From the IMG/VR virus record IMGVR_UViG_3300046804_001743, positions 1 to 64,000 of that record: a stretch of 64,000 nucleotides of DNA; one strand, given 5' to 3'. This document shows, piece after piece, positions 3,967 through 55,238 of the stretch. Position numbers and translations under genes: made by a program. Source of the DNA: a virus. The notes below the pieces were generated by a model, which was given only the letters and a program-made list of their open reading frames with translations, was not told where the DNA came from and did no database searches. Within the stretch, counting starts at the first letter, position 1, and each line of letters begins with the position of its first letter.

Positions 3967-4586
3967 GTCTTATAAGCAAGGACCATAAAACATTTTGCCA
4001 ATGGTATTACAACGACACAGAATATCATCGAGGCCAGAATCAAGTTGTCGATCCTGCATTAATGGAAGAAAAATGGTTAAGGGAAGTAAACTACATTACA
4101 CAAATGCGTAATACTTTTCCTGACCTTGTCCCAAATATTACTAATATCGATTTAGAAAGGCGCAGACTGTACTTTGAAATCGACGGACCAGACTTTTGGC
4201 AATTAGCAGGCCCTACTATACAAGACTACGATAGTGTACTTCCAGATTGGCGTGAGCAAATGCTAAACATTTTTAAAGCGCACAAGGCATTAGGCATTTA
4301 CAAATACAGCTTGCATCCTAGTAGTTACTTTGTTGTTAACGGTAAACTCAAAAGTATTAACTATTTCTTTTGTTATAGAGATCAAGATCCTAATATTAGT
4401 ATTCGTAGTGTGTTAAGCCATATAAGTGAAGACAGGCAAGCAGACCTATTTCCTAAAATGGCTGCAATGGGCATTAACGTAGATGCTCCTACTAGTTTTA
4501 AAGATATACAGATGTTAGCATTTGAAAGTTTCAAAACAAACTTCCCCGCTGACTTTATGGAAGAAGCTAAAAGTATCTATGAATAA
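3891..4586 (+). CDS. hypothetical protein
   Basis: ORF ends in an ATGAATAA overlap with the next radical SAM gene. Confidence 0.45.
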   Translation: MITGYEYYYNDVPGKGLCRNNLIYTSLISKDHKTFCQWYYNDTEYHRGQNQVVDPALMEEKWLREVNYITQMRNTFPDLVPNITNIDLERRRLYFEIDGPDFWQLAGPTIQDYDSVLPDWREQMLNIFKAHKALGIYKYSLHPSSYFVVNGKLKSINYFFCYRDQDPNISIRSVLSHISEDRQADLFPKMAAMGINVDAPTSFKDIQMLAFESFKTNFPADFMEEAKSIYE

Positions 4587-5739
4587 AACATATTGTGCTT
4601 TGCCATTTAGAGAAACAATGCTTGTGCCAGGAGATGTGCTATTGTTATGCTGTAGACACGACACTAATGTAATCATAGAAGAAAATTTTGAAAAAAGTTT
4701 TAAGTCTGGCAAAATACAAGAAATACGAGAATTGATGCTAGAAGGTAAGCCCGTCGCTGGTTGCGAACAATGTTATATAGAAGAAGAGCAAGGTGTAGAA
4801 TCGATGCGTCAACAAAGCATAAAGAAATACGGTGTTGTTGAGGATATCGAACTACAGGGAATACATATACAATTTGATAACGTTTGTAATTTAAAATGTA
4901 GGATGTGTACTTCTACTTCAAGTCATTTACTTCACAACGAAGAAACAGAATTATATGGTAAAGCTATTAGTTGGCAAAAGTTTGTAGTAGCAGATAGGTA
5001 TAAAGAAATTGATACTTCTAAATTAACAGTTATAAGACTGCATGGTGGCGAACCATTTATGAGCAAAAGGGCTGAGGACTTTTTTAAAAGTATTACAAAG
5101 TCAGGCCGTATTAATCAAGTCAGCATTGTTATACCTACTAACGGAATGATTAGACCATCTAATGATTTCTTAGAAGCATTAGAAAATTGCAATGTTTTAT
5201 CTATTGCGGTTAGTATTGATGCATATGGTGGATTTAACGATTATTTTAGAAGTAAGTCAGAATTTAATACAGTGATAGAGAATTTAGATTTCTTTTGCTC
5301 ACTAATTGATTCTAGAAAACCTGGGACTACTAACATTAGTGTTGTTACAACTGTTAATGTATATAACGTAAATAAGTTAACCGAATTAGATTCGTTTTTA
5401 ACTTCGCGTTATAACAATTTAAAATTAGTAAAGTCAATGCTACACGGCCCTGACTACCTACGAATTTCTTGTTTACCAAAAGAATACAAAGATAAAATTC
5501 GCCATACTTTAGAATTATATCCCGATGTTCTAAAAATGTTAGACAAAGAAGATACAAACTACTTTGAAGAATTTATTTTTTATCATAATACTTTAGACAA
5601 ATTAAGACATGAGTCTCTAGAAAACTTTAATATAGAGCTTTCTCAGTATATTAAGTCTTACAAAGTTGCTAAAGAAATAACAACAGAAAGCATGGCTAAC
5701 TTCTACAATTTTGTGGACCCAGGAATTTTTAATGACTAA
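4579..5739 (+). CDS. radical SAM enzyme with Cys-rich N-terminal domain
   Basis: N-terminal YCALPF...LLCC...GCEQCY domain, then CNLKCRMC (CxxxCxxC) and LHGGEPF. Start at the ATG overlapping the upstream stop. Confidence 0.8.
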   Translation: MNKTYCALPFRETMLVPGDVLLLCCRHDTNVIIEENFEKSFKSGKIQEIRELMLEGKPVAGCEQCYIEEEQGVESMRQQSIKKYGVVEDIELQGIHIQFDNVCNLKCRMCTSTSSHLLHNEETELYGKAISWQKFVVADRYKEIDTSKLTVIRLHGGEPFMSKRAEDFFKSITKSGRINQVSIVIPTNGMIRPSNDFLEALENCNVLSIAVSIDAYGGFNDYFRSKSEFNTVIENLDFFCSLIDSRKPGTTNISVVTTVNVYNVNKLTELDSFLTSRYNNLKLVKSMLHGPDYLRISCLPKEYKDKIRHTLELYPDVLKMLDKEDTNYFEEFIFYHNTLDKLRHESLENFNIELSQYIKSYKVAKEITTESMANFYNFVDPGIFND

Positions 5740-12362: not shown

Positions 12363-12961
12363 CATTCGGATGCTCATATACATTTGGTCAAGCGTTGCCT
12401 GACACAGATGGGTCATATCCTAGCAACATGGCATGGCCTAAGATATTAGGCAATATGCTAGACAGAAATGTAATTAATAAAGGAAGACCTGGTTCTAGTA
12501 ATCTTGAAATCTTGTTTAGCTTACTAAATTTTTCTTTTAAGAAAGACGATATAGTAGTAATAGGTTGGACTCATGTTAACAGAGATTACATTTTTAATAA
12601 AACTAAAAATATAGCGTTAGGTGCATGGTCGGATGATAACATTTTAAGTAACTGGGTGCAAGTGCATAACGATTACGATTTGTCAGTTAGGTCAGGACTC
12701 TATATACATCATGCAGAATTATTTTTAGATTCGTTAGGAATAAGGCAGTATCATTTTCGAGCAATCGGATCGGCCACTTTTGTAGATAAAATAGTAAATG
12801 CTTTCACAGAAATTAAACCTCTTTATACTAATAAACTTAAACATCAGATAAAGAAAAGAATTTTATACAAAAAAGATCTAGCGTTAGATAATGCCCATCC
12901 GGGAGTAGAATCGCACTTACATGCCGCTAAAGAACTTTACAAGATAATAAATGAACAGTAA
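12341..12961 (+). CDS. SGNH-like hydrolase/acyltransferase, variant GCS motif
   Basis: LITFGCSYTFGQ (block I with Cys in place of Asp) and DNAHPGVESH (block V DxxHP). AAGGAAAGAGA RBS before the ATG. Confidence 0.5.
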   Translation: MGSPRLITFGCSYTFGQALPDTDGSYPSNMAWPKILGNMLDRNVINKGRPGSSNLEILFSLLNFSFKKDDIVVIGWTHVNRDYIFNKTKNIALGAWSDDNILSNWVQVHNDYDLSVRSGLYIHHAELFLDSLGIRQYHFRAIGSATFVDKIVNAFTEIKPLYTNKLKHQIKKRILYKKDLALDNAHPGVESHLHAAKELYKIINEQ

Positions 12962-14210
12962 AACATTTTGTATGCATCCTTTTACAGGATTAGCCACTAG
13001 AGAAGATGGAGCAATTAAAATATGCTGCCGCAGTCAACCTATTGGCTGGATACAGGAACAAAGCCTAGAAGAAGCATGGAACGGCGACAACATGAGACTA
13101 GTTCGCCAGCAGGTACTTTCAAACGAAAGACCAGAGGTATGCAAGCCATGTTTTGATCTTGAAGACCAAGGTGTAGAAAGTTTACGCCAACGTCATATTA
13201 AAGGCGAAATACCAGAAGCAAGGATAAACCTGTATCCACACGCTTTAGAAAAATTACATCCAGAAATGACCATGCCGTTTGAATTTCCTACTATGGAAAT
13301 TAAACTCAACAACTTGTGTAATTTAAAGTGCCGTATGTGTAACCCATTAGACAGCACTAACTGGAAAGATTGGGATTCTGTCGTTCCTTTCTATAAAAAA
13401 GAAAATAACTATCTTGTTCCAACTATAGAAAAATTAGTTAAGACACCTGGGCAATATATTGGCCCGTTTGACGATACAGATAACTGGTGGGCTAGTTTTG
13501 AAAAACTATTGCCGCACTTTAGACGTGTAGAGTTTGCTGGCGGTGAACCGCTAATGGATCCTCAACACTATAAAATTTTAGATATGTTAAAACCTTATGG
13601 TAGCAACATTGAAATTAAGTATGCCACAAACGGCACTACATTAGGAATTAGCAAAGGAAGAACTATTCATGACTACTGGCCTCATTTTAGAAGCGTTGCC
13701 GTTAACGTCAGCATTGACGGCATTCACAATGTTTACAATTACATTCGTGGCAACGGTGACTTTAATCAAGTTGAAGAAAATATTAAAGAAATAAAAAAGA
13801 TACCAAACGTAAGTCGTGTAGTCGGTGCGTTTACAGCACAAGCAGGCAACATACTACAAGCGGCGGCCTGCATTGATTACTTTCTTAACAAGTTAGGCAT
13901 TGTGTTCTATAGTCATAGGGTAAGTTATCCCAATGTACTTTCAGCACAGGTGTTACCTAATGAATTGAAACAAGTAGCAATTAACAGATTGCGAGAAATT
14001 AGTATGCGTGTTTCCACATTTGATATTGTTAAGCAACATCCTATATTAGAAAAAATTACACAACAACAGATACAGGACAATATTAATTACCTACAAGCAA
14101 AAGATGAAAGCCATCGTTGGCAAGAATTTTTAGAATTTAATCGTGCGTTAGATGCTACACGCAACCAAAGCCTTTTAGATACTGTTCCAGAGTTTAAAGC
14201 GTATGTATAA
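12951..14210 (+). CDS. radical SAM enzyme with Cys-rich N-terminal domain
   Basis: FCMHPF...ICCRSQP...CKPCFDLEDQGVESLRQ N-terminal domain, then CNLKCRMC and FAGGEPLMD. Confidence 0.8.
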   Translation: MNSKTFCMHPFTGLATREDGAIKICCRSQPIGWIQEQSLEEAWNGDNMRLVRQQVLSNERPEVCKPCFDLEDQGVESLRQRHIKGEIPEARINLYPHALEKLHPEMTMPFEFPTMEIKLNNLCNLKCRMCNPLDSTNWKDWDSVVPFYKKENNYLVPTIEKLVKTPGQYIGPFDDTDNWWASFEKLLPHFRRVEFAGGEPLMDPQHYKILDMLKPYGSNIEIKYATNGTTLGISKGRTIHDYWPHFRSVAVNVSIDGIHNVYNYIRGNGDFNQVEENIKEIKKIPNVSRVVGAFTAQAGNILQAAACIDYFLNKLGIVFYSHRVSYPNVLSAQVLPNELKQVAINRLREISMRVSTFDIVKQHPILEKITQQQIQDNINYLQAKDESHRWQEFLEFNRALDATRNQSLLDTVPEFKAYV

Positions 14211-16181: not shown

Positions 16182-17133
16182 ATTTAGAAATTTGTATTTC
16201 GCCGCCGCACATACAAACATCTTTGTTACACACGATTGATGTAATCTTAGGTTTAAATTTATTTACAAACTCTGGATCGTAAATGTTGTAGTGAAATGCT
16301 TCGTTGTAGATTTTTTGTTTACAAGTACCAGCAATAACACCGTCCTGAAACACCTCTATGTAATCTACACCAAGGTTACAATTCCATCCTTTGAACCTAT
16401 TTAGGTTATTTAAGAATAGCCAGTTATCTTCGACTAAAGTTTTCTTCCCATCGATAACAGCCCACAGCCTTCTGCGTTTACTTACTTTTAAACTGAACCA
16501 CCAAAATAAATTAGGCCAGCGTTTTAATTGTACAGAAAGATATTTCATCTGTTCTTCGTCATGCAAAGACTGGCCGTTGATCTGCACAGCCTTAGCAACT
16601 ATAGGCCAACGCTTTTTACTTTTTCGTAACTGTTCAATTAGACCTTTACATTTGTCAAATGCAAACGGATCCATTAGCACATTAGCTACTATATTGTTCT
16701 TGTTAGTATACAAAAAGTCAGCAACTTCTATAATGTGATCTATCTTTGCGTATTCGTGGTGTACAGATATTTCAACTACATCAAAGCAGTTAGCATTTTC
16801 TTGCCACCAGTTTAATTTCCTTGTTGCATTTGTAGATATTTTAATTATGACATCATAGTTGGCTTTTAGGTGATTACAAAATTTTGGCAGGTCTTTCCAT
16901 AATGTAGTTTCGCCACCAATGATAAAAAATTCAAATTTATTCTTTCCCTGTTGCTTGTATGTGTTAAGCAAGTGATCAAAGTTCTTGATAAGTAAATCAA
17001 CGTCCGGCCATGGAACATTACCTTCATTACTTCCCGGAAAACAATAGTGGCACTTATAATTACAAAGGTTGCCGGGCATGTATTCGATCCTAAGTAGGTC
17101 AGGTTCGTCGTTATTAATAATCTGTGTAATCAT
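16159..17133 (-). CDS. radical SAM / SPASM-twitch domain enzyme
   Basis: CNYKCHYC and IIGGETTLW. C-terminal WNCNLG...C...CNKDVCMCGG. Its 3' end overlaps the convergent 15084 gene by 23 nt. Confidence 0.8.
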   Translation of the reverse strand: MITQIINNDEPDLLRIEYMPGNLCNYKCHYCFPGSNEGNVPWPDVDLLIKNFDHLLNTYKQQGKNKFEFFIIGGETTLWKDLPKFCNHLKANYDVIIKISTNATRKLNWWQENANCFDVVEISVHHEYAKIDHIIEVADFLYTNKNNIVANVLMDPFAFDKCKGLIEQLRKSKKRWPIVAKAVQINGQSLHDEEQMKYLSVQLKRWPNLFWWFSLKVSKRRRLWAVIDGKKTLVEDNWLFLNNLNRFKGWNCNLGVDYIEVFQDGVIAGTCKQKIYNEAFHYNIYDPEFVNKFKPKITSIVCNKDVCMCGGEIQISKFIPIKSV

Positions 17134-18512
17134 AATAGATGTGCTAGTTCCGGAAATATTTCTTTGAAAGAAGTACCACGCAACTTATCTAATCTCTCTA
17201 TATACTCTTTAAATGCTAGCAATTGACTGCTATGATCTTCAGCATCCATAAAGTCTAATACTGCTTGCCATCGCTTCCAACCATATGGATTCTTTTTCCA
17301 GAAGTCTTCATCTTGCCTATAATTTTCGTATAACCAATTAGCTAGCTCGGCAAAACTTCTACGGACTTCTGCTTTATCCTCTGCAGGTAAACATCTAATG
17401 CTTAGGAATGTTGGAATATACAACAAGTGCATATTGACAATTCCGCCGCCTGCTTGGATACCGCCCGTTACATTTTCTAAGTTAATCTTCTTAAAATTCT
17501 GTGTAATTTTCCACTTGGCAAAATCTGCTAAATGCTTGATGTTTAAAATTTGTATAGCAGTAGCAATTGATACTTGTATATTGTCAGGAGTGTTATCTAA
17601 CTTATGTAAATTCTTTTCAATGGTATTCCAATCACTAGGGTAGCGAATGTAATAGTTGCGGTCACCTACTGCGTCTATGCTAAAACCAACTTTAACTTTT
17701 TTAAACTGTTTCCAGAGATCAATAATTTCGTCGTCAACAAGCAATCCGTTTGTGTTATATCTTACAAGTATTTTGTCTGCATATCCTTGCCTGATAATTT
17801 CCTCTAAGAACCACTTATGTTCTCTAATCATTAATGGTTCGCCACCGGCAAAGTATACTTGTTTTAAGTTTGGAATCTGTGCATACATTTCTTTCCAGAA
17901 GTCTGGATTCTCATGCCAGAAATTATTAAAGTCTTTTCGATCCCATTGCATCTGTTCTTTAAGTTCTTTGGCTTGGAATAAAGGGTAAATCTTTTTATGA
18001 TCTGCTACCCATTGACTACTATCATGTGGACTGCACATAACACACTTTAAATTGCAAGTGTGCCCTAAACGCAAATCTAAGTAAACAAGTTTTTCTGGTA
18101 CTGTGCCATCTTCTTGTGTTTGGGTGATGAGCTCAGGAATATCAATTCCTTCTTCCATCCAGGACCCTGTTTCCCAGATGCGCTTGCTAGCAACACCTTT
18201 TGATTCTTCAGCAATACACTTACTACAACTAGCAGGAATTTTTCCTTCTAGCATAGTCAAACGTACATCACGCATATATTCATTATTCCATGCGCTCATA
18301 GGAGTTTCTTTGCCGAAGTTAGCAGGAACTCCTTTTTCATTTTTAACTAAACCCACTGTATGGTTTTCACCTGCTCCACTGGCATTGGCACTACAGCATA
18401 GTCGCATGTCTCCATTTGGCCGTGTGGCAAAGTGTATCCATGGCAATATGCAGAAAGTTTTGCTTCCTGATGCGGCTTCAATTTTATCTTGCCAGTGCTT
18501 AATTGTGTTCAT
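17130..18512 (-). CDS. radical SAM enzyme with Cys-rich N-terminal domain
   Basis: TFCILPW...LCCSANAS...CSKCIAEESKGVASKR, then CNLKCVMC and FAGGEPLMI. Confidence 0.8.
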   Translation of the reverse strand: MNTIKHWQDKIEAASGSKTFCILPWIHFATRPNGDMRLCCSANASGAGENHTVGLVKNEKGVPANFGKETPMSAWNNEYMRDVRLTMLEGKIPASCSKCIAEESKGVASKRIWETGSWMEEGIDIPELITQTQEDGTVPEKLVYLDLRLGHTCNLKCVMCSPHDSSQWVADHKKIYPLFQAKELKEQMQWDRKDFNNFWHENPDFWKEMYAQIPNLKQVYFAGGEPLMIREHKWFLEEIIRQGYADKILVRYNTNGLLVDDEIIDLWKQFKKVKVGFSIDAVGDRNYYIRYPSDWNTIEKNLHKLDNTPDNIQVSIATAIQILNIKHLADFAKWKITQNFKKINLENVTGGIQAGGGIVNMHLLYIPTFLSIRCLPAEDKAEVRRSFAELANWLYENYRQDEDFWKKNPYGWKRWQAVLDFMDAEDHSSQLLAFKEYIERLDKLRGTSFKEIFPELAHLL

Positions 18513-19110
18513 TTTGTGTACCAATTATCATAAATCTTTTATATAAAGGCAGTTCTAATTCGCCTGCCCATAGGACATGAATGCCGCATTGTGTTTTAAA
18601 TTCTTCTAAGTCTTTAGCGATACGAACATGTTCTGGTATGTTGTAATTATTACTTTGTAATACTAGCAGGCTGTTGTGAGGATGCCCACTTAACCATTCT
18701 TCGTACTGTTCCTGTGTTATGTGTTCGCAACTGGTATTGATAATAATATCAGCATCACTACGCATAGTACACATATCGGCGGTTACTGCACGAAACCTTC
18801 CTGATTCAAATTCCATTTGATTCATACGGTTAGCAATCGCTTCACAGTCTGGATCAATGTCAATACTTCTAATGTTGTTAACAAAAAGCTCACTTTGAAA
18901 TATAAGGCTTGCTAGTGTCCCCACCCAGCCACCGTGAATATCAATGCTAGGCCAAGTTTTAAAATTACCTCGTTGTTTAACTAATTCTTTAATGAGCCAT
19001 TCCTTACTGCTCATTTGTCCTCGCCAGAAAGCATCAAGGGTCCGCATAGGGTCCTTGCTCTCACGGATGGCACACATCCAATGATGTAGGTGTTCTGTAT
19101 CAACTAACAA
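18499..19110 (-). CDS. putative SAM-dependent methyltransferase
   Basis: IDIHGGWVGTLA (glycine-rich motif I-like) followed by IRSIDIDPD (acidic motif II-like). Confidence 0.4.
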   Translation of the reverse strand: MLVDTEHLHHWMCAIRESKDPMRTLDAFWRGQMSSKEWLIKELVKQRGNFKTWPSIDIHGGWVGTLASLIFQSELFVNNIRSIDIDPDCEAIANRMNQMEFESGRFRAVTADMCTMRSDADIIINTSCEHITQEQYEEWLSGHPHNSLLVLQSNNYNIPEHVRIAKDLEEFKTQCGIHVLWAGELELPLYKRFMIIGTQNEHN

Positions 19111-20077
19111 ATTGTGCTCCTAGTTTATCAAACTTGCCGCATTGTTTACTGCATTCTATTAAAGGCTTTACTGCCCATGTGTCTTCTATCTTTTTAAAGA
19201 ATCCTAGATTAAAGATTTCTTCTAGTGTATTTTGTGTTAGGCTAGGAAATATCCCTATGGCATCCATATACTCAACACGATTATCTTGGTTAGGCAGTTG
19301 CCAAGAAAAGTCTAACCAACAGCAAGGACTTACTATGCCGTTAGCACTAATATAAATCTGTTTGTACTTTTGTGCCTTACATTGTATCTCAGCAGACTCA
19401 ATGTTTATTACCTTAGGCGTGTAACTTTTACTAATTTCTGTAGGATATAAAATGTGTGTGGTCTTGCCCGACTCGTCTAATACATTAAATTTTCCATCTT
19501 TAAAACGGCTAGTGTGTTTTACTTGGAAATGTTTAAATCCTAATAGTTGGCTCATTTCCCTGCAGATGTCTACCTCATTTTCGTTATGTTCAAACACTAG
19601 CATATCCCAAGTTGCTTCACCACCTGCTTTAATAAACAATTTTGCGTTGTCTAAAATCTTAACCCAGTCAGTGCCCACACGATACAATGCGTGTGTGTTA
19701 ATTAATCCATCTATACCAAACCTAACTTGTACACCCACGGCTGCGAGCCCCTTCCAGAACTGCCAGCTTCTGGCACTTCCGTTAGTATTCATGCTTAAAC
19801 GAATTGTAGGATTTGTTTCTCTCAAGTACTGAAATATTTTTAGACAATCTTGTGCTATAATAGGATCACCTAAATTGCCGCACATAAACAAACTGTCTAA
19901 CTGTTTTATAAAACTAACAGGGAACCATTCTTTAAATTGCTCTAGGGTTATTTCATTTAACGACATAAGAGGATTAATGGGACCACCATTGATGCGGCGT
20001 GGACACATTGGACAACGTGCTTGGCACTTGCTAGTCAATTCTAAGTGTACGTCTCTAATATCTTCTAGTTTATACAT
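19100..20077 (-). CDS. radical SAM enzyme (Cys-rich C-terminus)
   Basis: CQARCPMC near the N-terminus and GNLGDPI. C-terminal CCW...C...C cysteines. Confidence 0.75.
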   Translation of the reverse strand: MYKLEDIRDVHLELTSKCQARCPMCPRRINGGPINPLMSLNEITLEQFKEWFPVSFIKQLDSLFMCGNLGDPIIAQDCLKIFQYLRETNPTIRLSMNTNGSARSWQFWKGLAAVGVQVRFGIDGLINTHALYRVGTDWVKILDNAKLFIKAGGEATWDMLVFEHNENEVDICREMSQLLGFKHFQVKHTSRFKDGKFNVLDESGKTTHILYPTEISKSYTPKVINIESAEIQCKAQKYKQIYISANGIVSPCCWLDFSWQLPNQDNRVEYMDAIGIFPSLTQNTLEEIFNLGFFKKIEDTWAVKPLIECSKQCGKFDKLGAQFVS

Positions 20078-21024
20078 TTTGGTATTTTACTGTCCGCCGA
20101 ACTTACGCAGGTTGGTGTAATACAGCGTTGAGGTTGTTTAAATAATTTAAAGTTATCTAATGTGCCTAATAGTTCGTCATGGCAGCTATAACTTCTTTTA
20201 ACCTCATTACCTCTTATTATAACACTCTGATAGCCTGCATTGCAAGCCCATCCTTGGAATTTGTTAAATCCAAAGGCATTAAATCTTTCTGCTTGATCTA
20301 ACAAGTGCTCTGTGCCATTTGCTTCATATAGAGCTATTTGGTAAACATCTTCACCATTGGCTCTTTGTGGAAAACCTGTACGCATTTTGTGTATCATATC
20401 CTCAGTATAACCGTCAACTACTGCACTAGCAGTTTCGTTACTTTGTGGCTTTAGTGTTACATTGATTCCTCTATCGTGTAACCTCTGCATACGGTCATAC
20501 AATTCATAAAATTTTTCAGGAACCATAACTTGGTTTACTGTAACAAATACACCCTTATCTATTAAGTAAATAATCTTATCACCAAACTCTGTTTCGTCAG
20601 CAAACTCGTGATGGAAACTGGCAGTAAGGCTTCTACGCCTGCTTAACGATGTACCAGCTAGCCACCTATCCCACCATTGGATCCCAGGACTAAGGTTAGT
20701 AGTCATATGAATACTGTCATAGAAAACTTTGGACATTAGCTCAATTGAGTGTTTGTATGCGGTAGGTTCACCTCCGCTGAAACTCCAGTGAAATTGGACA
20801 AATCCATTTTGGGCGGCTTGAAATCGTATTTCGTCTATTGTTCTTTTATAAACTTCGAGCTCTTGATGATCTGGTGTTTGGCTATTAGCATAAGGCCAAC
20901 AATAGCTACATTTATAGTTACAAAATCTACCCAAAATCCAACTCACTGAGAAAATTTGGTCGTTGAGCATAGTTCGTTGTCCAAAACGAACGATCTTTTG
21001 GAATGGTATGGTTGCAAAGCTCAT
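20065..21024 (-). CDS. radical SAM / SPASM-twitch domain enzyme
   Basis: CNYKCSYC and FSGGEPTAY. C-terminal WACNAGY...C...C..C. Probable ATG at 21024 (the ORF track starts at a GTG, 21030). Confidence 0.8.
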   Translation of the reverse strand: MSFATIPFQKIVRFGQRTMLNDQIFSVSWILGRFCNYKCSYCWPYANSQTPDHQELEVYKRTIDEIRFQAAQNGFVQFHWSFSGGEPTAYKHSIELMSKVFYDSIHMTTNLSPGIQWWDRWLAGTSLSRRRSLTASFHHEFADETEFGDKIIYLIDKGVFVTVNQVMVPEKFYELYDRMQRLHDRGINVTLKPQSNETASAVVDGYTEDMIHKMRTGFPQRANGEDVYQIALYEANGTEHLLDQAERFNAFGFNKFQGWACNAGYQSVIIRGNEVKRSYSCHDELLGTLDNFKLFKQPQRCITPTCVSSADSKIPKCIN

Positions 21025-21052
21025 TGACACTATTTACAAACGGATATATAAT
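21024..21052 (+). promoter_or_regulatory. sigma70-consensus promoter (TTGACA-17nt-TATAAT)
   Basis: TTGACA at 21024-21029 and TATAAT at 21047-21052 with a 17-nt spacer. The predicted TSS (about 21059) coincides with the start of the tRNA-like element. Confidence 0.6.
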
Positions 21053-21058
21053 TATGCT

Positions 21059-21177
21059 GTAGACGTGAGTGGAACTTGGTATACCTCCCCCGGCAGTATG
21101 TAACAAACTACTGTTGGGGGGCTAAGGCCTAGCCCATAGTGGCGGCTTTGCAGGTTCAAATCCTGCCGTCTACACCA
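21059..21177 (+). ncRNA. tRNA-like element (canonical acceptor stem, T-arm and CCA; non-canonical 119-nt body)
   Basis: 5' GTAGACG pairs perfectly with 3' CGTCTAC, followed by A-CCA. T-arm GCAGG-TTCAAAT-CCTGC. U8 is present. The body instead forms a long hairpin CCCCCGGCAG/CTGTTGGGGG with a 14-nt loop, plus a second hairpin GGGCTA-AGGCC-TAGCCC. It is too long for a standard tRNA. Confidence 0.4.
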
Positions 21178-21185
21178 TTTTAACT

Positions 21186-21200
21186 ACACACTGAGGCACA
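21186..21200 (+). promoter_or_regulatory. conserved 5' leader / RBS motif ACACACTGAGGCACA (copy 1)
   Basis: Identical 15-mer also at 27607-27621. In both places it sits immediately before the ATG, with GAGG 5 nt upstream. Confidence 0.5.
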
Positions 21201-21201
21201 A

Positions 21202-21528
21202 ATGAAAAAGGCACTTTTTGGTTTATTGTTTATTGCTACCGCAGTACAGGCAGGTATGGAAAAAGATGCGTATGAGAAATACGACATGACCAATCTGAAG
21301 ACTGATCAATCTCTTATTAAGATTGTTACAGTTGACGATGTCAAGGCCGCTTGTAATAGACTGCGTGTAAGCGAAGGTCTCAAACCATTTACCTTTAGTG
21401 TTGAAGCCTGTAGTGTTTGGCCTAAGGACGGATCCTTTAAGAGCTGTACAGTCTACATTGGAAAGAAAACTAACAACGACATCCTTGGTCACGAAATCCG
21501 TCATTGCTTTGTAGGCAACTTTCACTAA
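21202..21528 (+). CDS. small secreted protein with C-terminal HExxH-like motif
   Basis: Signal peptide MKKALFGLLFIATAVQA. C-terminal GHEIRHCFVGNFH. Confidence 0.5.
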   Translation: MKKALFGLLFIATAVQAGMEKDAYEKYDMTNLKTDQSLIKIVTVDDVKAACNRLRVSEGLKPFTFSVEACSVWPKDGSFKSCTVYIGKKTNNDILGHEIRHCFVGNFH

Positions 21529-22079
21529 TGTCTAAAGTATCATCAAGCCCGGACCGAAACACTTTCCAAAAAGAAGCATATCTAGAACGATGTGCCAAAG
21601 ATGGTAAAGAGCCTAGTAAGGCATACCTTGAAATGTGGGAAAACACAGCCAAGCAACACGCAGAATGGGCAGAGAAAGAACATAAGAACGACATGGAGTA
21701 CGACCTTCGTACCTGTGAATGGATGCTAGACAAAGTGCGCCAAAGCGATACCTACGCCCAAAACCTATACGCGGCCATGTGTAATATGACTTGGCAAAGC
21801 CGTGAGTTTTGGCAAGAACTAAAAGGTGAAACTTGGTCTTGCTCTTGGAGATATGCTGGCGGTATAATTGCTGACATGCGTCAAGAGGGTGATTACATTG
21901 ATTGGTACTGTTCAGGTATGGGCGGACTCAATCAAGAGTACGAGGGTGAAGAAACTAACGAAGAATGGCAAAAGCGTACAGGTTATGTTCCTGAAGGTTT
22001 TGTAACTGATGAAATCGAATTAGACCTTAACCGCTTGGGTTGGAGACCAGTTCCTTATGACGACGACAAATTAACTTAA
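21528..22079 (+). CDS. hypothetical protein
   Basis: ORF starting at the TAATG overlap (MSKVSSS...). Trp/Cys-rich. Confidence 0.45.
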   Translation: MSKVSSSPDRNTFQKEAYLERCAKDGKEPSKAYLEMWENTAKQHAEWAEKEHKNDMEYDLRTCEWMLDKVRQSDTYAQNLYAAMCNMTWQSREFWQELKGETWSCSWRYAGGIIADMRQEGDYIDWYCSGMGGLNQEYEGEETNEEWQKRTGYVPEGFVTDEIELDLNRLGWRPVPYDDDKLT

Positions 22080-22089
22080 TAAATAAAAG

Positions 22090-22272
22090 ATGGAAAATAA
22101 AGAACAATTCGTTTTTACCGCAGAGGATATTTTTGAAGAAATCCCAGGAGATCCAGAAAATGTCAGAATGAAATTTCCCGAAGAAGTTTTAAAACTTACA
22201 GGTTGGAAAGAAGGTGATGTGCTAGATATTGAAGTCAAAGACGGAAAGATCGTTGTAACAAAACATGAGTAA
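22090..22272 (+). CDS. AbrB/SpoVT (swapped-hairpin) domain-like small protein
   Basis: EVLKLTGWKEGDVLDIEVKDGKIVVTK resembles the AbrB/MazE/SpoVT domain. Overlaps infA by 8 nt. Confidence 0.45.
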   Translation: MENKEQFVFTAEDIFEEIPGDPENVRMKFPEEVLKLTGWKEGDVLDIEVKDGKIVVTKHE

Positions 22273-22483
22273 AGACGACATCATCGAACTCACAGGCACA
22301 GTTGAAGAAGTTTTACCTGGTAACATGTTTAGAGTAAAGGCTGATAATCTTGATACAGTTTTGCTCTGCTACATGGGTGGTAAATTGAAGCAACACAAGA
22401 TTAGAATAATCTTAGGCGATAAGGTAAAGATGGAGGTTAGTCCATATGACCTTACAAAAGGTAGAGTAACTTATAGGTTGTAA
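22265..22483 (+). CDS. infA: translation initiation factor IF-1 homolog
   Basis: 72 aa. Aligns along its full length to bacterial IF-1 (S1-like OB fold): TGTVEEVLPGNMFRV...IRIILGDKV..PYDLTKGRV, which is my recollection of E. coli IF-1 GTVLETLPNTMFRV...IRILTGDKV..PYDLSKGRI. Confidence 0.85.
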   Translation: MSKDDIIELTGTVEEVLPGNMFRVKADNLDTVLLCYMGGKLKQHKIRIILGDKVKMEVSPYDLTKGRVTYRL

Positions 22484-22484
22484 C

Positions 22485-23159
22485 ATGAACTCAGTAATGG
22501 AAACAGTTTGCTCAGTGTGCCATAAAGTACAGGCAGCTAGCAAATATGGATCGAAGTTTCCTCAGGTTCTAAAAACTCTACGCAAAGAATTTAAAATACA
22601 CGATATAGAATTAAAGATTAGAAGTCGCAAAGATAAGGCTCTCGATTCTGCTGAATTTTATGTTCATGCTTATTACGACTCTTTTGATGACAGTAATCTA
22701 GATATACCGATAGAAGTTATTGTCAACAACAACTTTGACAAAGAACAAGTTTGGGATTCAAAACAAGTTGAAGACTTTTTAGTACAAGTCTATGATGCAG
22801 TCGTTCACGAGAAAAAACACCAACGTCAGAGTAAAAAAAGAAACTATGAGCAATATTGGGATCATCCCGATGGCGGCTATCACTATCACGAATACTTACA
22901 AGATCCAGATGAGCTAGATGCTTACTCATTAAGTATTGCAATCGAACTATGCAGGACATTGGGCAAACACAGAGCGTTAAAGTACATGCCTAAATTTACC
23001 AAATTGGCTAAAATGAAGATTGGAGGCCAATATGTTAGTCCAAATTTAAATGCCTATGTTAGCCATTTTGATCAGCCAGTAAGCCCTTTGCTAAGACGTT
23101 TAGCCAAAAAAATCTACATACGTTTGAAAAAGATTGACACAGATTACGTTTTCCCGTAA
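22485..23159 (+). CDS. HExxH zincin-like protein (paralog of 31718)
   Basis: VVHEKKHQRQ, then a downstream DPDELDAYSLSIA motif. The same layout recurs in the 31718 protein (VLHEIIHTRQ ... DRDEMGAHSFNLA). Confidence 0.45.
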   Translation: MNSVMETVCSVCHKVQAASKYGSKFPQVLKTLRKEFKIHDIELKIRSRKDKALDSAEFYVHAYYDSFDDSNLDIPIEVIVNNNFDKEQVWDSKQVEDFLVQVYDAVVHEKKHQRQSKKRNYEQYWDHPDGGYHYHEYLQDPDELDAYSLSIAIELCRTLGKHRALKYMPKFTKLAKMKIGGQYVSPNLNAYVSHFDQPVSPLLRRLAKKIYIRLKKIDTDYVFP

Positions 23160-23190
23160 AATAATAACATAATCAATCATTTGAGCGATA

Positions 23191-23892
23191 ATGGAAAAGA
23201 ATCCTTCATTCCCACTCCAGACGGTACTGGAACTAGCCTGTGCGGCTCAACGCCTTAACAAAGAATACATTAAGGTAACTGAGCCAATCTATTCTGATGA
23301 CAATAAACTAATGTCCTACAAATGGGATAATAAGATATTGATTTTGACAACATTGGACCCAAATAGGTTCAAACCCTCAGAGGACTCCCTCAAGCCGCCA
23401 TTGCTTTGTACTAACCGAGATGATGCAGAATTGGCTGACGAGATCAGAAAGTACTATAAACGGTTATTGTTTTCCGCCATACAAGGGGATAACGAATTCC
23501 AAACTGAGGTTAACGCACTACTCAGTTCAGAGACAGTTGCAACAAACAAACTTGGATTCATTGCCTGTTTGCCTAGTGTTTATAAAAGAGACTATGGACG
23601 ACACCAGTTAGAAAAAAAGATTAAAACTGCTGACGTAGGTTGGCTAGGAGAAGTGGGAGATTTGCTTTTAGATAAAGACTGCGAAGTCCTAAAATGCCAA
23701 CGCTCGAAAAACTTTGATGCTTTTAACATTGATGCTATAATTGATAACAAAATAGTTTCTTGGATGAGCAAATATGAGCTAAAACTAGGGCCTACTGTTG
23801 TAGTCAAAGCTAAGGTTAAGGATCAAGGATTTCATTGGTCTCATAAAGAAACTCCTGTAACTAGATTAAATTTTGTGAAAGCCGCACAATGA
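23191..23892 (+). CDS. hypothetical protein
   Basis: ORF only. Confidence 0.4.
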   Translation: MEKNPSFPLQTVLELACAAQRLNKEYIKVTEPIYSDDNKLMSYKWDNKILILTTLDPNRFKPSEDSLKPPLLCTNRDDAELADEIRKYYKRLLFSAIQGDNEFQTEVNALLSSETVATNKLGFIACLPSVYKRDYGRHQLEKKIKTADVGWLGEVGDLLLDKDCEVLKCQRSKNFDAFNIDAIIDNKIVSWMSKYELKLGPTVVVKAKVKDQGFHWSHKETPVTRLNFVKAAQ

Positions 23893-24368
23893 ACGAAGAT
23901 CAAGAATTTGAAGAGTACGAAGAGTTTGCTAAAAAGATGGAAATTGAATATCCACGTATGTTCAGCGGCCACTATGGCGGCTTTGCTGTAGGCAAGGGAT
24001 GGTGGCCACTAATTGAAAAACTCTGTGGAACCATTCAACGTCACATTGATTGGGCTAATGATACTCGTAGTGCTTTGCTTATTTCAAACCCCTACGGTCA
24101 TAAAATTCCAGACGCAGTAGAACAAGTTGTTGTCCAACAGATTAAAGAAAAGTTCGGTACACTTCGTTTTTATTACGAAGGCGGTGACGAATACATCCAA
24201 GGTGCAACAACCCTAGCAGAGAACCTAACAGGACACTTATGCGAAGAATGTGGTGGATTTGGTAAAGTTAGGCACGGCGGTTGGGTGCGTGTACTATGCG
24301 ACCAACATGAAGCAGAGCGTCAAGCTCGTATCGAAGAACAAGCAAAGAAAGATGGATTAGAACTATGA
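23889..24368 (+). CDS. hypothetical protein with C-terminal CxxC...C..H zinc-ribbon-like motif
   Basis: CEECGGFGKVRHGGWVRVLCDQHE. Confidence 0.4.
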   Translation: MNEDQEFEEYEEFAKKMEIEYPRMFSGHYGGFAVGKGWWPLIEKLCGTIQRHIDWANDTRSALLISNPYGHKIPDAVEQVVVQQIKEKFGTLRFYYEGGDEYIQGATTLAENLTGHLCEECGGFGKVRHGGWVRVLCDQHEAERQARIEEQAKKDGLEL

Positions 24369-24643
24369 CTGACGAAAAAGATAAAGAATTTAAAATTGAG
24401 TTTGCACCTGGATGCTTTGATCAATTCGAAGGCTCTCAAGAAGAACTAGATGAAATGGTAGCTGAGATTCAAAAGCTATTTGCATCTAAAACCCGTGAAG
24501 AGATTGAAGCAATGAGTAAGCCGTTGAGCGAAGAGGACTTTGCTGAACTTCCTGAAGATATTCAAGTTCAACTAGTTCAAACATTTTCTAACCTAAACAC
24601 TGATGAGGACTCTGATAATGGCTCTAATAAAAGACTTCATTGA
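24365..24643 (+). CDS. hypothetical acidic protein
   Basis: ORF with ATGA overlap. Very acidic. Confidence 0.4.
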   Translation: MTDEKDKEFKIEFAPGCFDQFEGSQEELDEMVAEIQKLFASKTREEIEAMSKPLSEEDFAELPEDIQVQLVQTFSNLNTDEDSDNGSNKRLH

Positions 24644-25199
24644 GGCTGTAGACTTCAAAATTACCGGCGGTAGTGAATACACTTGGGACTGTTTTGGCCC
24701 CAACGCTCGATATTTAGACTGTGCCGATAACGAAGGTTATAATGGAACTTATAGCATTAATGCCGTTTTTGATAGTGTAACACAAGAGGTATACACTATT
24801 GAAGTTTGGGACTATGTTAATGATCGAGAATATCGTTGGATCGATAAAGCATACATTAAAGATCACATGAAAGCATGTGCTAAACACGAAGTAGACCTAT
24901 ACGAGTCTATGGATGGACGCAACTATATCGACTTAGATTTGGCAGAAGACATTTTGGAAAAAGCTAATGCTTTAGTTAACGGTGTCCAATACGATACTCG
25001 TGTCAAAGTACCGGTTGACTTTACTGATGAAGAACTGCTAAAATATATGAAAATGGCGCACGAACGTGATATGACCTTTAACCAATTTGTTGAAGAAGCA
25101 TTGCGTTTTGCAATTGAAGAACATCAAGCTGGGCATTTAACTAAAGAAGATGCTCAGAAATTTATAAGAGAACGAAATGAAAATCACCCTAGCATCTGA
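24603..25199 (+). CDS. hypothetical protein
   Basis: ORF only. Confidence 0.4.
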   Translation: MRTLIMALIKDFIEAVDFKITGGSEYTWDCFGPNARYLDCADNEGYNGTYSINAVFDSVTQEVYTIEVWDYVNDREYRWIDKAYIKDHMKACAKHEVDLYESMDGRNYIDLDLAEDILEKANALVNGVQYDTRVKVPVDFTDEELLKYMKMAHERDMTFNQFVEEALRFAIEEHQAGHLTKEDAQKFIRERNENHPSI

Positions 25200-26031
25200 T
25201 CTCCATTTAGAGTTTACAGACTGCTACGACCTTAAGAACGAGAACAACGCCGATGTGTTGATTCTCTCTGGTGATATCATGATTGCCGAGGATCTCTACG
25301 ACCATCCTGTCGTTCCTAGTATTTACGAGTACGGTTCATTTGCTGAACTGGGTCGTAAGCAAAAGCGTGTACAAACATTCCGTGATTTCCTAAAACGCAT
25401 GAGCAATACATTTGCTAATGTTATCTATGTTGCTGGCAACCACGAATTCTATCACGGTAAATGGGTCAAGGGTATTGAGTATCTCCGTCAGGAATGTTCT
25501 CAGTTGCCTAACGTTCATTTCTTAGAACGTGATTGTGTTAAAATACAAGATGTTACCTTTGTCGGTGGCACCTTGTGGACTAACATGAACAAGGGCGATC
25601 CACTGACACTTCATGCCGTTCGCGACATGATGAACGACTTCCGTATCATTCGTAACGACGAAAAAGGTTACACCCAACTCAAGCCGCATGATACTGTTGT
25701 TCGTCACAAACAAACACTTGAATATATTCGTAGTGTTGTTGCTGAAAAGCATGACGAAAAGTTTGTTGTTGTAGGACATCACAGTCCAAGTTTCCAAAGC
25801 ATACACGAATCGTATAAACACGAAACTTTAATGAACGGTGCTTACCACAGCGACTTGAGTGAGTTTATTTTAGATCATCCACAGATTAAACTGTGGACAC
25901 ACGGTCACACCCATCACTGTTTTGATTACACGATAGGTGAAACTCGTGTTGTGTGTAACCCACGTGGCTATGTAAGCGATGGTTATAGTGAAGACACCGG
26001 ATGGAATCCTAATATTATTTTGGAGGTATAA
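25177..26031 (+). CDS. calcineurin-like metallophosphoesterase
   Basis: Motifs D.H (DLHLE), GDIMIAED, VAGNHEFYHG, GHHSP and GHTHH. Confidence 0.75.
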   Translation: MKITLASDLHLEFTDCYDLKNENNADVLILSGDIMIAEDLYDHPVVPSIYEYGSFAELGRKQKRVQTFRDFLKRMSNTFANVIYVAGNHEFYHGKWVKGIEYLRQECSQLPNVHFLERDCVKIQDVTFVGGTLWTNMNKGDPLTLHAVRDMMNDFRIIRNDEKGYTQLKPHDTVVRHKQTLEYIRSVVAEKHDEKFVVVGHHSPSFQSIHESYKHETLMNGAYHSDLSEFILDHPQIKLWTHGHTHHCFDYTIGETRVVCNPRGYVSDGYSEDTGWNPNIILEV

Positions 26032-28741: not shown

Positions 28742-29536
28742 ATGAAACGTTTTATTACTCTTGGTATTTTGGCCGGTGCTGTATTGATGACTGGTTGTAC
28801 CCGTATCGAAACAGGTGAGGTTGGCTTGCGTGTCGGCTTTGACAAGCAGGTTAAAAATGAGGAACTGCTACCAGGATCATTCAATCAGGTTATCATCGGC
28901 GATGTGCTTACATTTCCGGTTAAGGATGTTAACGTCAAACTTGACGACATGACTCCTATTGCCAAAGACAATAGCACTATGAAAGACTTTGACGCTATTG
29001 TTATCTATAACTTGAACCAAAGTCAAGTTGCCGAGTTGTACAATTCAAAGTCTAAGGCGTTCCATATTAGACATGACGGCGACACTTACTTGATGTTTAA
29101 CTACATTTACAATGCCGCTCGTAATGCTATCTACAAAGAAGCTCGTAAGTACGAAGCATTGGATATGGCAGATAATCGTCAAGCTATGGAGCAGGCGATT
29201 CGTGAGCAGATCCAAAAAACGTTGGTAGACGAAAAGTTAGACGGTAGCATTAGTATCGGCCAAGTGTTGATCCGTAACGTTGTTCCAGCAGATTCTGTCG
29301 TTGAAAGTGCTAACGCTCTTGTTCGTGCTAAGAACGAATTCAAGCAAAAGGAAGTTGAAGTGAAGACTGCTGAAGCAGAAGCTCGTCGTATGCAAGCGTT
29401 GGCTAATCAAGGTGCTCAAAGTATTGCCTATATGCAGGCTCGAGCACAAGCAGACATTGCTGAAGGTATCAAGAATGGTAAAGTCAATACTGTTGTTGTG
29501 CCCTACGACTTCAAAGGTCAAGTAGTGATTAAGTAA
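28742..29536 (+). CDS. SPFH/band-7 (HflK/C-, prohibitin-like) lipoprotein
   Basis: Lipobox LMTGCT, then TGEVGLRVGFDKQV... typical of the start of an SPFH domain. Ala/Glu/Gln-rich coiled-coil C-terminus. Confidence 0.6.
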   Translation: MKRFITLGILAGAVLMTGCTRIETGEVGLRVGFDKQVKNEELLPGSFNQVIIGDVLTFPVKDVNVKLDDMTPIAKDNSTMKDFDAIVIYNLNQSQVAELYNSKSKAFHIRHDGDTYLMFNYIYNAARNAIYKEARKYEALDMADNRQAMEQAIREQIQKTLVDEKLDGSISIGQVLIRNVVPADSVVESANALVRAKNEFKQKEVEVKTAEAEARRMQALANQGAQSIAYMQARAQADIAEGIKNGKVNTVVVPYDFKGQVVIK

Positions 29537-30973: not shown

Positions 30974-31594
30974 ATGCCACATCTAGTACCTACAGTTATT
31001 GAAACAGAAGCACGTGGTGAACGTGCTTATGACATTTACAGTCGTCTGCTCAAGGACCGTATTGTAATGTTAGATACAGAAGTAGACCAACATTCTGCTA
31101 GTTTGCTTGTAGCACAACTGCTATTCTTGGAAAGTCAAGGAAACGAAGATATTAACTTCTTTATCAATAGCCCCGGTGGAAGTGTTACTGCTGGTCTTGC
31201 TATTTACGATACCATGCAGTTTATTAGGCCAGATGTTGCAACTTATGTTGTTGGACAGGCTGCAAGTATGGGGTCTTTCCTTGCTCAAGCTGGCGCACCC
31301 GGAAAGCGGTTTGTTCTACCCGAAAGTCGGACAATGATTCATCGTGTAAGTTCAGGTACTCCGGGCACACGAGGAAGTGTGCATGTTCAGGAACTTGAGT
31401 TTGAAGACGCTAAACGCACCTTTGAAGAAAGTCAAAGATTGAATAAACGACTAACTGAGCTGTATGTTAAGCACAATACTGCCGGCAAGACATTCAACGA
31501 AATGTTTGAAACTATGAAGTTTGATACGTTTTTAAGTGCTCAGGCGGCTGTAGAATATGGACTAGCTGATAAAGTTATCGAAAAGCGTCCGTAA
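30974..31594 (+). CDS. clpP: ATP-dependent Clp protease proteolytic subunit ClpP
   Basis: [51 protein letters not shown] matches the bacterial ClpP core, including the active-site Ser and His context. Confidence 0.9.
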
Positions 31595-36341: not shown

Positions 36342-37733
36342 ATGAGCGCAGAAATTGATCGCATTAAAAAAGTAATCAAAATTACTAACGAAATTAGTCC
36401 AACATTCTGTTTGGCTAAATGGCACCATACTAGCATATACCTACATACTGGCCAAACACACAGTTGCTATCATCCAAGACCGCACGAAATTCCCTTAGAA
36501 GAAATTAAGTTTAATCCGGCGGCCTTACATAATACTCCTGAAAAGAAAAAAGAACGTGCCTTAATGCTTGTTGGTGAGAAGCCAAAAGGCTGTCAGTACT
36601 GTTGGAACGTAGAAGGACTTAGTGATACGCACATTAGCGACAGGCACGATCGAAATGCTAACATTTATAAACCAGAACGTTTAGAAGAAATCAAAAATAG
36701 TCCTTGGGACTTTAACATCAATCCAGAATACATAGAACTGGCATTTAGTAACGAGTGCAATTTTAAGTGTGGTTATTGCCATCCTATGAGCTCAAGCAGT
36801 TTCCAAAGCGAAATTAAAAAGCACGGTCCGTACAATACTGTTAAAAATCATACATTGAATATTGAGTGGTTCAATCCTTATCAAGAAGATGAAAATCCCT
36901 ACATTGATGCATGGTGGAGATGGTGGCCAGAAGTTAGTAAAACTTTAAACATTTTACGCATTACAGGTGGCGAACCCTTAATGCATAAGAGTACTTGGCG
37001 GTTGTTTGATAACTTGCGTCAGGAACCTCGTCCTTATTTAGAACTTAACCTAAACAGTAATTTAGGAACCACAACAAGACATGTAGAAAAACTTGTTGAA
37101 AATGTAAACGACTTAGTTAGCAATAATAAAGTTAGAACATTTAAACTATTTTCAAGTATGGATACTTGGAATAAACGTGCAGAATACTTGCGTACAGGAT
37201 TAGACGTAGATTTGTGGGAAAAGAATTTAGATGTATATCTAACAGGAACTAAACTTCCAATTAGCATCATGTGTACATTTAATATTTTAAGTGTTACATC
37301 ATTTATAGACTTCCTTGAAAAAGTTTTAGAATGGCGTAGGAAATATCAACCGTTACTAAACCCCGATGGTTACGGTAGACGTATTAGATTTGATACTCCT
37401 TATCTAAAAGAACCTCTACAGTACGACATGTTAATTTTACCAAAGGAAGAATTTTTACCTTACTTTGATAAAATTTTAAAATTTATTAATGACAATAGAG
37501 ACGAAACTGATCCTACAAAATTTACCGATATGGAGTATGAAAAGTTTCGTAGGGTTCGTGATTACTTTGCTACAGCAAGTTACGATGAAGCAAGAGTCAA
37601 AGAAGGTCGTAAAGATTTTTATAACTGGTTTACGGAATATGATCGTAGGCGCGGCGTGAATTTCTTAGAAACATTTCCTGAAATGGCAAATTTCTGGGAA
37701 CTATGTAAATCACAAGGTGCGCCTAATGAATGA
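36342..37733 (+). CDS. radical SAM enzyme with Cys-rich N-terminal domain
   Basis: FCLAKWHH...SCYHP...GCQYCWNVEG, then CNFKCGYC and ITGGEPLMH. Paralog of the 45980 gene. Confidence 0.8.
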   Translation: MSAEIDRIKKVIKITNEISPTFCLAKWHHTSIYLHTGQTHSCYHPRPHEIPLEEIKFNPAALHNTPEKKKERALMLVGEKPKGCQYCWNVEGLSDTHISDRHDRNANIYKPERLEEIKNSPWDFNINPEYIELAFSNECNFKCGYCHPMSSSSFQSEIKKHGPYNTVKNHTLNIEWFNPYQEDENPYIDAWWRWWPEVSKTLNILRITGGEPLMHKSTWRLFDNLRQEPRPYLELNLNSNLGTTTRHVEKLVENVNDLVSNNKVRTFKLFSSMDTWNKRAEYLRTGLDVDLWEKNLDVYLTGTKLPISIMCTFNILSVTSFIDFLEKVLEWRRKYQPLLNPDGYGRRIRFDTPYLKEPLQYDMLILPKEEFLPYFDKILKFINDNRDETDPTKFTDMEYEKFRRVRDYFATASYDEARVKEGRKDFYNWFTEYDRRRGVNFLETFPEMANFWELCKSQGAPNE

Positions 37734-55232: not shown

Positions 55233-55238
55233 AATAAT

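Follow-up and report, generated by a model that had tools for sequence, protein, structure and literature searches.

A phage-lineage homologue of translation initiation factor IF-1 and its acidic AbrB-fold neighbour

Why should a virus encode translation initiation factor IF-1, and is the small gene that runs into its start a partner or a mere neighbour? The question is raised by a stretch of viral DNA of 64,000 nucleotides (hereafter the window), in which an open reading frame of 60 amino acids at positions 22090–22272 overlaps the beginning of one of 72 amino acids at 22265–22483, both on the + strand. A first-pass annotation, made from the sequence itself, had described the longer frame as a phage-encoded IF-1 homologue and the shorter one as an AbrB/MazE/SpoVT-like gene, and had proposed that the two are translationally coupled. 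The reading that we favour, with a probability of roughly 70% for the whole of it, is that the phage carries an auxiliary, functional IF-1 acting in the A site of the 30S subunit, and that the AbrB-like gene specifies an acidic protein for which a partnership with IF-1 is possible.

The window probably comes from an uncultured large tailed phage of the jumbo kind. Running off the end of the window is an open reading frame (55233–63998, + strand) of 2922 codons or more, the first 1500 residues of which match the tail-fibre families phrog_5342 and phrog_4527. A virion-structural PHROG match, an ATP-dependent DNA ligase and a ClpP are encoded as well, and one protein of the window is common to the jumbo phage PA5oct and to T4-like phages. 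The 64 kb showed no gene for a terminase, a capsid or a portal protein, and no ribosomal or housekeeping gene lies in the neighbourhood of IF-1. A tRNA scan of the window returned nothing, nor does the window contain other translation genes. Scanning it against Rfam at gathering scores gave no match, and hence no sign of a known leader or regulatory RNA. A megablast search of positions 20000–26000 against 50,697 phage records was also without a match, which indicates a lineage without a close cultured relative.

The 72-residue protein, which starts with ATG and has a pI of 8.8, is a genuine full-length bacterial-type IF-1 homologue. It scores 92.2 bits (E=1.5e-26) against TIGR00008, the NCBIfam equivalog for infA, over positions 1–69 of the 69 in the profile and well above the trusted cutoff of 61.15 bits; it matches Pfam PF01176 end to end, with 69.9 bits (E=1.5e-19) for a cutoff of 30.2. 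The first-pass annotation had claimed a match over the whole length, had suggested PF01176 as the profile to consult, and had named a generic cold-shock or S1 assignment as the outcome that would speak against its claim. The best profile is instead the IF-1 equivalog, above its trusted cutoff; the Pfam and NCBIfam profile searches reported no cold-shock or generic S1 profile, and beyond the IF-1 profiles the protein matches just the OB-type N-domain of RsgA, weakly. With phmmer, the protein aligns over its full length with solved IF-1s. The proposal that about half of the positions are identical to IF-1 also holds: identities are 39–56% to phage records by tblastn and 50–56% to solved IF-1s by Foldseek, with 56% to C. 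difficile 6c00 and 50–51% to 2n78 and 2n8n. The JGI pipeline likewise labels members of this clade 'translation initiation factor IF-1'.

The predicted structure agrees with the profiles. The AlphaFold2 model (pLDDT 78.4) has strands at residues 7–17, 21–26, 32–36 and 53–58 and a helix at 39–43, with a poorly formed fifth strand and final residues of low confidence. The top 14 PDB matches found by Foldseek are all IF-1, while S1 and other OB proteins rank lower; the TM score is 0.82 to the E. coli 30S-bound IF1 (9fco_I) and 0.81 to that of T. thermophilus (1hr0_W). The phage protein thus resembles bacterial IF-1 (1AH9, 1HR0, 6C00, 9FCO) in its length, its single OB fold and the short helix between beta3 and beta4. 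The resemblance extends to the universal columns and to most of the residues that contact the 30S subunit. It differs in being phage-encoded, away from housekeeping genes, and in the insertion after N28, the loss of His30, a set of fixed changes and the missing C-terminal extension that characterise the phage clade.

These similarities and differences were located by comparing 45 distinct IF-1s of the phage clade with a set of 69 distinct IF-1s recovered from bacteria. Wherever the 69 bacterial proteins are invariant, the phage clade preserves the residue; of the contacts to h44, the 530 loop and uS12 it has kept most, and these positions are nearly invariant within it. Contact residues and their roles have been described for C. 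difficile and T. thermophilus IF1 (PMC10913371). Among those that touch the backbone of the 530 loop, K39 is retained as K40 of the window protein, and M42 of C. difficile has become Q43, which is fixed in the clade and is K in 78% of the bacterial set. Of the two residues that touch the flipped-out A1492/A1493, R46 is retained as R47, and R41 is conservatively replaced by K42, a position occupied by R in 97% of the bacterial set and by K in 100% of the phage clade. On the side that faces uS12, Y60 and R66 are both retained (Y61 and R67), R64 corresponds to K65, as in most bacteria, and H35 is replaced by Y36, which is fixed in the clade and is also found in 26 of the 69 bacterial IF-1s. R70, which is reported to be critical for IF1 function, is retained as R71. 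H30, which is perturbed upon 30S binding, is absent from the phage clade, where one residue is inserted after N28 and the Gly-His is gone. Further fixed changes in the clade are A to C35, S to G38, M to L41 and L to I49, and the C-terminal tail is missing. Given that several 30S-facing positions are fixed differently in the clade, the affinity for the subunit or the specificity for partners could differ from that of the bacterial factor.

Taken with the known occupancy of the 30S A site by IF-1 (PMC13345285, PMC10913371), the conserved residues and the fold suggest that the phage IF-1 binds in this site, between h44, the 530 loop and uS12. There it would work alongside the IF2 and IF3 of the host, either adding to the host's own IF-1 or taking its place, and would allow initiation to continue, or to be tuned, during host shutdown.

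An IF-1 by descent might also be used mainly as an RNA chaperone, or as a cold-shock-like binder of single-stranded RNA, which would for example melt structure in phage mRNAs with a weak Shine-Dalgarno sequence rather than serve as an A-site factor. RNA-chaperone activity has been reported for cellular IF-1, the OB fold of IF-1 resembles that of S1 and cold-shock proteins, and S1 and other OB proteins do appear further down in the fold search. Half of the genes in the window have no Shine-Dalgarno-like motif, and some of the 30S-facing residues are altered, which would also fit this alternative. We nevertheless regard it as unlikely, since the h44, 530 loop and uS12 contacts are mostly retained, the best structural matches are ribosome-bound conformers of IF-1, and no cold-shock domain profile was reported. 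The retention of the universal IF-1 columns at a dN/dS of about 0.05 would likewise be unexpected for a generic RNA binder. An A-site factor therefore remains the reading that we prefer.

The same estimate of dN/dS, obtained from pairwise comparisons within the IF-1 clade in which dS is saturated, points to strong purifying selection on the gene. IF-1 is the most conserved gene of its block, with a median identity of 83%, compared with 37–64% for the neighbours that are present in most loci; another gene, g92, reaches a median of 75% but is present in just 10 loci. Relatives are abundant in metagenomes: among the matches listed (2328 matches in all) there are more than 100 IF-1 protein clusters, defined at 90% identity, that are 81–99% identical to the window copy, and 292 IMG/VR contigs carry a relative. 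Copies that are 88–93% identical sit on contigs of 330–370 kb, a size range to which the NCBI contig CACVDF010000001.1 belongs, and the gene is kept in at least three genomic contexts. The best 80 bacterial IF-1s from 185,579 species genomes are at most 59% identical to the phage protein and are scattered over many phyla. This distance from the best bacterial IF-1s, together with the wide spread on viral contigs, marks an old and distinct phage-resident clade rather than a recent acquisition from a host.

These data bear directly on the suspicion that the gene was recently and neutrally picked up from a host, or that the window is misbinned or bacterial DNA. Phages are known to acquire genes from their hosts, and some IF-1s in the phage collection look like host contamination: among them are short fragments under the name of Listeria phage and a large contig, recorded as an Acinetobacter phage, with an annotated infA. 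For the present window we consider such an origin very improbable. The low identity to bacterial IF-1s, the many clusters and viral contigs and the strong purifying selection all argue against it. So does a neighbourhood that is devoid of ribosomal and housekeeping genes and instead contains tail-fibre-like, virion-structural and phage-type ligase genes.

Nor is an IF-1 gene in a phage without precedent. IF1 is among the translation genes of the huge phages of Al-Shayeb et al. 2020 (PMC7162821) and is a core gene of the Jug phages (PMC12880540). It is also annotated in Sinorhizobium phage Phosso (gp175) and present in Lak phages and in the DAC phages of Bacteroides. The remark in the first-pass annotation that phage-encoded translation factors are rare was therefore overstated, and the IF-1 of the window is a further, well-supported example rather than a new principle. 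The IF-1s of huge and jumbo phages have similarly been read as redirecting or sustaining host translation (PMC7162821, PMC12880540). To those found in the records of the phage collection the window copy is just 39–56% identical (tblastn). The surroundings differ as well: the gene upstream of IF-1 in Phosso is MutT-like, and the flanks in both Phosso and DAC16 are without an annotated AbrB-like gene. Phage IF-1 as such being already documented, the acidic AbrB-fold and HExxH neighbours described below are a modest new detail.

The gene in front of IF-1 starts with ATG and encodes a 60-residue protein with a pI of 4.5 and a net charge of about -8. Its score against PF04014, 24.4 bits, is just below the gathering cutoff of 24.7, and that against TIGR01439 is 20.9 bits for a cutoff of 28.3; it also matches phrog_661. 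The homologue in one divergent relative (L225) passes PF04014 with 32.5 bits, and in the family, which comprises at least 6730 members, precomputed PF04014 matches exist for most of the homologues listed. The AlphaFold2 model of the monomer (pLDDT 89.6) contains strands at residues 15–18, 21–27, 45–50 and 53–58 and a helix at 31–37, in a beta-beta-alpha-beta-beta order. Its best Foldseek matches are AbrB-N (1yfb), SpoVT (2w1t) and MazE (1mvf), with probabilities of 0.96–1.00 and with E-values that are weak because the domain is short. According to the model, then, the protein has the AbrB/MazE/SpoVT fold; the earlier assignment stands on the predicted fold, with a sequence score that is borderline.

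The further description of this protein as DNA- or RNA-binding finds no support in its residues. In all 49 distinct homologue cores the net charge lies between -5 and -10. Conservation falls on acidic or structural residues (E-IF-E-IPGDP-N, P-E, GWKEGD), and the basic residues conserved among the homologues are just the K of GWKEGD and one C-terminal K. At the positions of R8, R15, R23 and R24, which we take to be the DNA-contact arginines of AbrB, the family has, in this order, E; M, I, L or R, with R in the window copy only; L; and K, A or E. The basic DNA-contact set of an AbrB-type regulator is thus lacking. The strong acidity, together with the absence of conserved basic residues at the contact positions, makes binding to nucleic acid unlikely. 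The protein probably dimerises by swapping hairpins, and its ligand would be another protein instead of nucleic acid. It shares the beta1-beta2-alpha-beta3-beta4 unit of about 45 residues with AbrB-N, SpoVT and MazE (PF04014) but is strongly acidic, has no toxin-binding tail and adjoins no cognate toxin. The gene evolves under purifying selection (dN/dS about 0.27), and a tblastn search with the protein against the 50,697 phage records found no match.

A type II toxin-antitoxin pair with a MazE/AbrB-fold antitoxin was considered and rejected. The protein ends 2–4 residues past beta4, without the C-terminal tail with which MazE binds its toxin, the downstream gene is IF-1, and PADLOC gave no match for six genes of the block, which leaves a defence or toxin-antitoxin interpretation without support.

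How closely, then, are the two genes connected? Both sets of coordinates and the 8-nt overlap on the + strand given in the first-pass annotation are correct. The overlap (22265–22272) reads ATGAGTAA; the upstream frame ends with ...AAA CAT GAG TAA, and the ATG of IF-1 begins at the second base of CAT. No Shine-Dalgarno-like motif occurs in the 20 nt upstream of this ATG, so that termination-reinitiation coupling is plausible. Reinitiation of this kind would, however, be generic for the window, where 43 of the 70 same-strand neighbouring gene pairs overlap, seven of them by exactly 8 nt, and where a Shine-Dalgarno-like motif is missing from half of the genes. With overlaps being the norm, the one between the AbrB-like gene and IF-1 is not special, and the claim that it marks a particular translational coupling lacks support. 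It is probably a product of tight gene packing within a conserved syntenic block.

The pairing itself had been called unusual. It is in fact recurrent in the lineage, but it is not obligatory. Seen from IF-1, an AbrB-like frame lies immediately upstream in 84 of 91 lineage loci, with overlaps of 8, 1 or 4 nt; in the other seven loci IF-1 occurs without it, in an RF1-like/PTH2 or other context. Seen from the AbrB-like gene, IF-1 lies immediately downstream in 60 of 80 IMG/VR loci, including IF-1s that are 48–60% identical to the window copy, and the AbrB-like gene is found without IF-1 in 19 IMG/VR loci as well as in L007, where the context is unrelated. Two relatives, L248 and L252, have a homologue of the gene downstream of IF-1 (g224) directly behind the AbrB-like gene, with IF-1 precisely missing; some relatives can therefore do without IF-1. 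The AbrB-like gene of 16 loci stands before a gene for a large protein that has an HEVGH motif and an LDWSGSM motif, the latter resembling the MIDAS site of a vWA domain.

Such adjacency could reflect a dedicated module, in which the AbrB-like protein and IF-1, possibly with an HExxH protein, act together. An AbrB-fold dimer might sit on the basic, rRNA-binding face of IF-1, or on the peptidase, as an inhibitor, a chaperone or an antitoxin-like regulator, the acidic dimer thus gating IF-1 activity during infection. The frequent start/stop overlap on both sides of the comparison would fit this arrangement, as would the opposite charges of the two proteins (pI 4.5 and 8.8) and the order of the genes, with the antitoxin-fold gene first and its partner second, as in type II toxin-antitoxin layouts. 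In three divergent loci (L204, L225 and L250), moreover, the flanks differ and a trio of AbrB-like gene, IF-1 and a small protein with an HEMVHVKQ motif is kept. The persistence of the adjacency at 48–60% IF-1 identity, with differing flanks, is more than the inertia of synteny easily explains. On the other hand, the entire block is syntenic, so that adjacency alone is weak evidence, and overlaps are the default in the window. Each gene is also found alone, the AbrB-like protein ends at beta4 without a MazE-like partner-binding tail, no PADLOC or toxin-antitoxin match was obtained, and the two genes evolve at very different rates (dN/dS 0.27 and 0.05). A dedicated module is therefore doubtful in our view, and we retain the reading of an auxiliary IF-1 next to an acidic protein with which a functional partnership, as far as gene order and charge suggest, is possible.

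The block to which both genes belong has the order g108–g183–AbrB-like–IF-1–g224–g233–g159. The first gene (g108, 21202–21528, + strand) encodes 108 residues, among them an HEIRH motif and a hydrophobic, signal-peptide-like N-terminus, and is syntenic in 79 of 90 loci; the Pfam and NCBIfam searches gave no significant family. The second (g183, 21528–22079, + strand), syntenic in 82 of the 90, encodes 183 residues from the ATG at 21528, or 191 from an alternative TTG start at 21504, and has no Pfam, PHROG or PADLOC match. Downstream of IF-1, g224 (22485–23159, + strand; 224 residues) starts 2 nt past the IF-1 stop and is syntenic in 80 of the 90 loci. Its motif, HEKKHQRQ...YWDHP...DELDAY, makes it a putative zinc metallopeptidase-like protein, and no significant family was found for it in Pfam, PHROGs, NCBIfam or PADLOC. 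The searches of NCBIfam, Pfam and PHROGs gave nothing useful for g183, g233 and g159.

Proteins with an HExxH motif cluster around IF-1 and the AbrB-like gene: g224, g108, the small HEMVHVKQ family and the large HEVGH/LDWSGSM protein. Examples outside the window are found at L225:1969-2445, L091:2070-2531 and L224:1734-3158. Between the small HEMVHVKQ family and g224 there is remote homology (hhalign probability 83%, E 9e-6). Of 150 loci, 119 have an HExxHxxQ frame directly adjoining IF-1; of the 19 loci that lack IF-1, 18 have an HExxH protein encoded directly downstream of the AbrB-like gene. In its association with IF-1, the gene for the putative HExxH peptidase is about as constant as the AbrB-like gene.

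A more ambitious interpretation would join the AbrB-fold protein, IF-1 and the putative HExxHxxQ metallopeptidase into a three-part system for taking over translation. What the peptidase would inactivate is a component of host translation, perhaps host IF-1 itself; the phage IF-1, with its altered beta2-beta3 loop and helix, would be a resistant substitute, and the acidic dimer would restrain IF-1 or the peptidase until needed. The trio kept in the three divergent loci, the frequent contact of HExxHxxQ frames with IF-1 and the persistence of the AbrB-like–HExxH pair where IF-1 is absent are all in line with this scheme, which we hold to be improbable. We return to the phage IF-1 as an auxiliary factor.

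The expression of the block is probably driven by a sigma-70-type promoter, TTGACA-17-TATAAT, at 21024–21052 on the + strand. The element matches the consensus at 12 of 12 positions; the intergenic region in which it lies separates divergent genes, and the first + strand gene begins about 150 nt further on. Of 48 distinct relatives, 47 have a similar element ahead of the g108 homologue, with the same 17-nt spacing and agreement at no fewer than 10 of the 12 positions; its distance from the g108 start is mostly 126–165 nt, and in a few relatives as much as 210 nt. Exact 12/12 promoters (TTGACA-16/17-TATAAT) occur five times on the + strand of the window, at 21024, 27563, 28565, 32435 and 51386, and several further sites match the consensus at 11 of 12 positions. 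A promoter that is both perfect and conserved in position suggests, from its motif, transcription by the host RNA polymerase, and hence probably early transcription. In the reading that we favour, the five-gene block would accordingly be transcribed by the host enzyme early in infection, and the auxiliary IF-1 would be made with it.

The present clade offers a compact test case for phage initiation factors: it is large and ancient, its conservation far exceeds that of the genes around it, and it carries fixed substitutions in the 30S-facing helix and loop. With it, one can address whether a phage IF-1 tops up the host pool or alters the kinetics or selectivity of initiation, and the acidic AbrB-fold and HExxH neighbours are concrete candidates for partners.

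Several minor observations were made in the relatives and in the rest of the window. A 102-residue IF-1 homologue from an NCBI source (P0001) carries an internal duplication of about 30 residues, with GGKLKQHKIKIILGD present twice, which could stem from tandem duplication or from faulty assembly. In five IMG/VR relatives (L022, L069, L074, L081 and L089), the gene directly upstream of IF-1 encodes a truncated RF1-like release factor. It is found at L022:2314-3000, outside the window, as well as in L074, L081 and L089, and is partial in L069; in L022 it is preceded by a gene for a PTH2 peptidyl-tRNA hydrolase. The RF1-like gene has PCRF and RF-1 domains and the GGQ motif, and its best PDB matches are RF1. 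An in-frame stop, TGA in L022, is conserved in all four loci that cover the site. It aligns to a Trp of the T. maritima and E. coli RF1 (..ERKGW.. and ..ARRW.., respectively), and the frame is the same on either side. Genome-wide recoding of UGA as Trp in these relatives was considered and rejected, since TGA is used as a stop and code 4 gives no better coding density. By analogy, and in spirit like the autoregulation of prfB, the interrupted gene may be a sensor of UGA readthrough.

The relatives also have genes for TauD, a fatty-acid desaturase and a glycosyltransferase close by. In the window, the run of + strand genes downstream of the block encodes a Band 7/SPFH protein, the ClpP protease and a calcineurin-like phosphoesterase (28742–29536, 30974–31594 and 25177–26031, respectively). 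Radical SAM genes are unusually many for 64 kb, six being above the Pfam cutoff or with a strong PHROG match (4522–5739, 12951–14210, 17130–18524 on the - strand, 19100–20077 on the - strand, 20065–21030 on the - strand, and 36342–37733) and one being weak (45980–47491). Several of them also carry a SPASM domain, which in the genes at 12951–14210 and 17130–18524 lies N-terminal to the radical SAM core and may represent a permuted arrangement.
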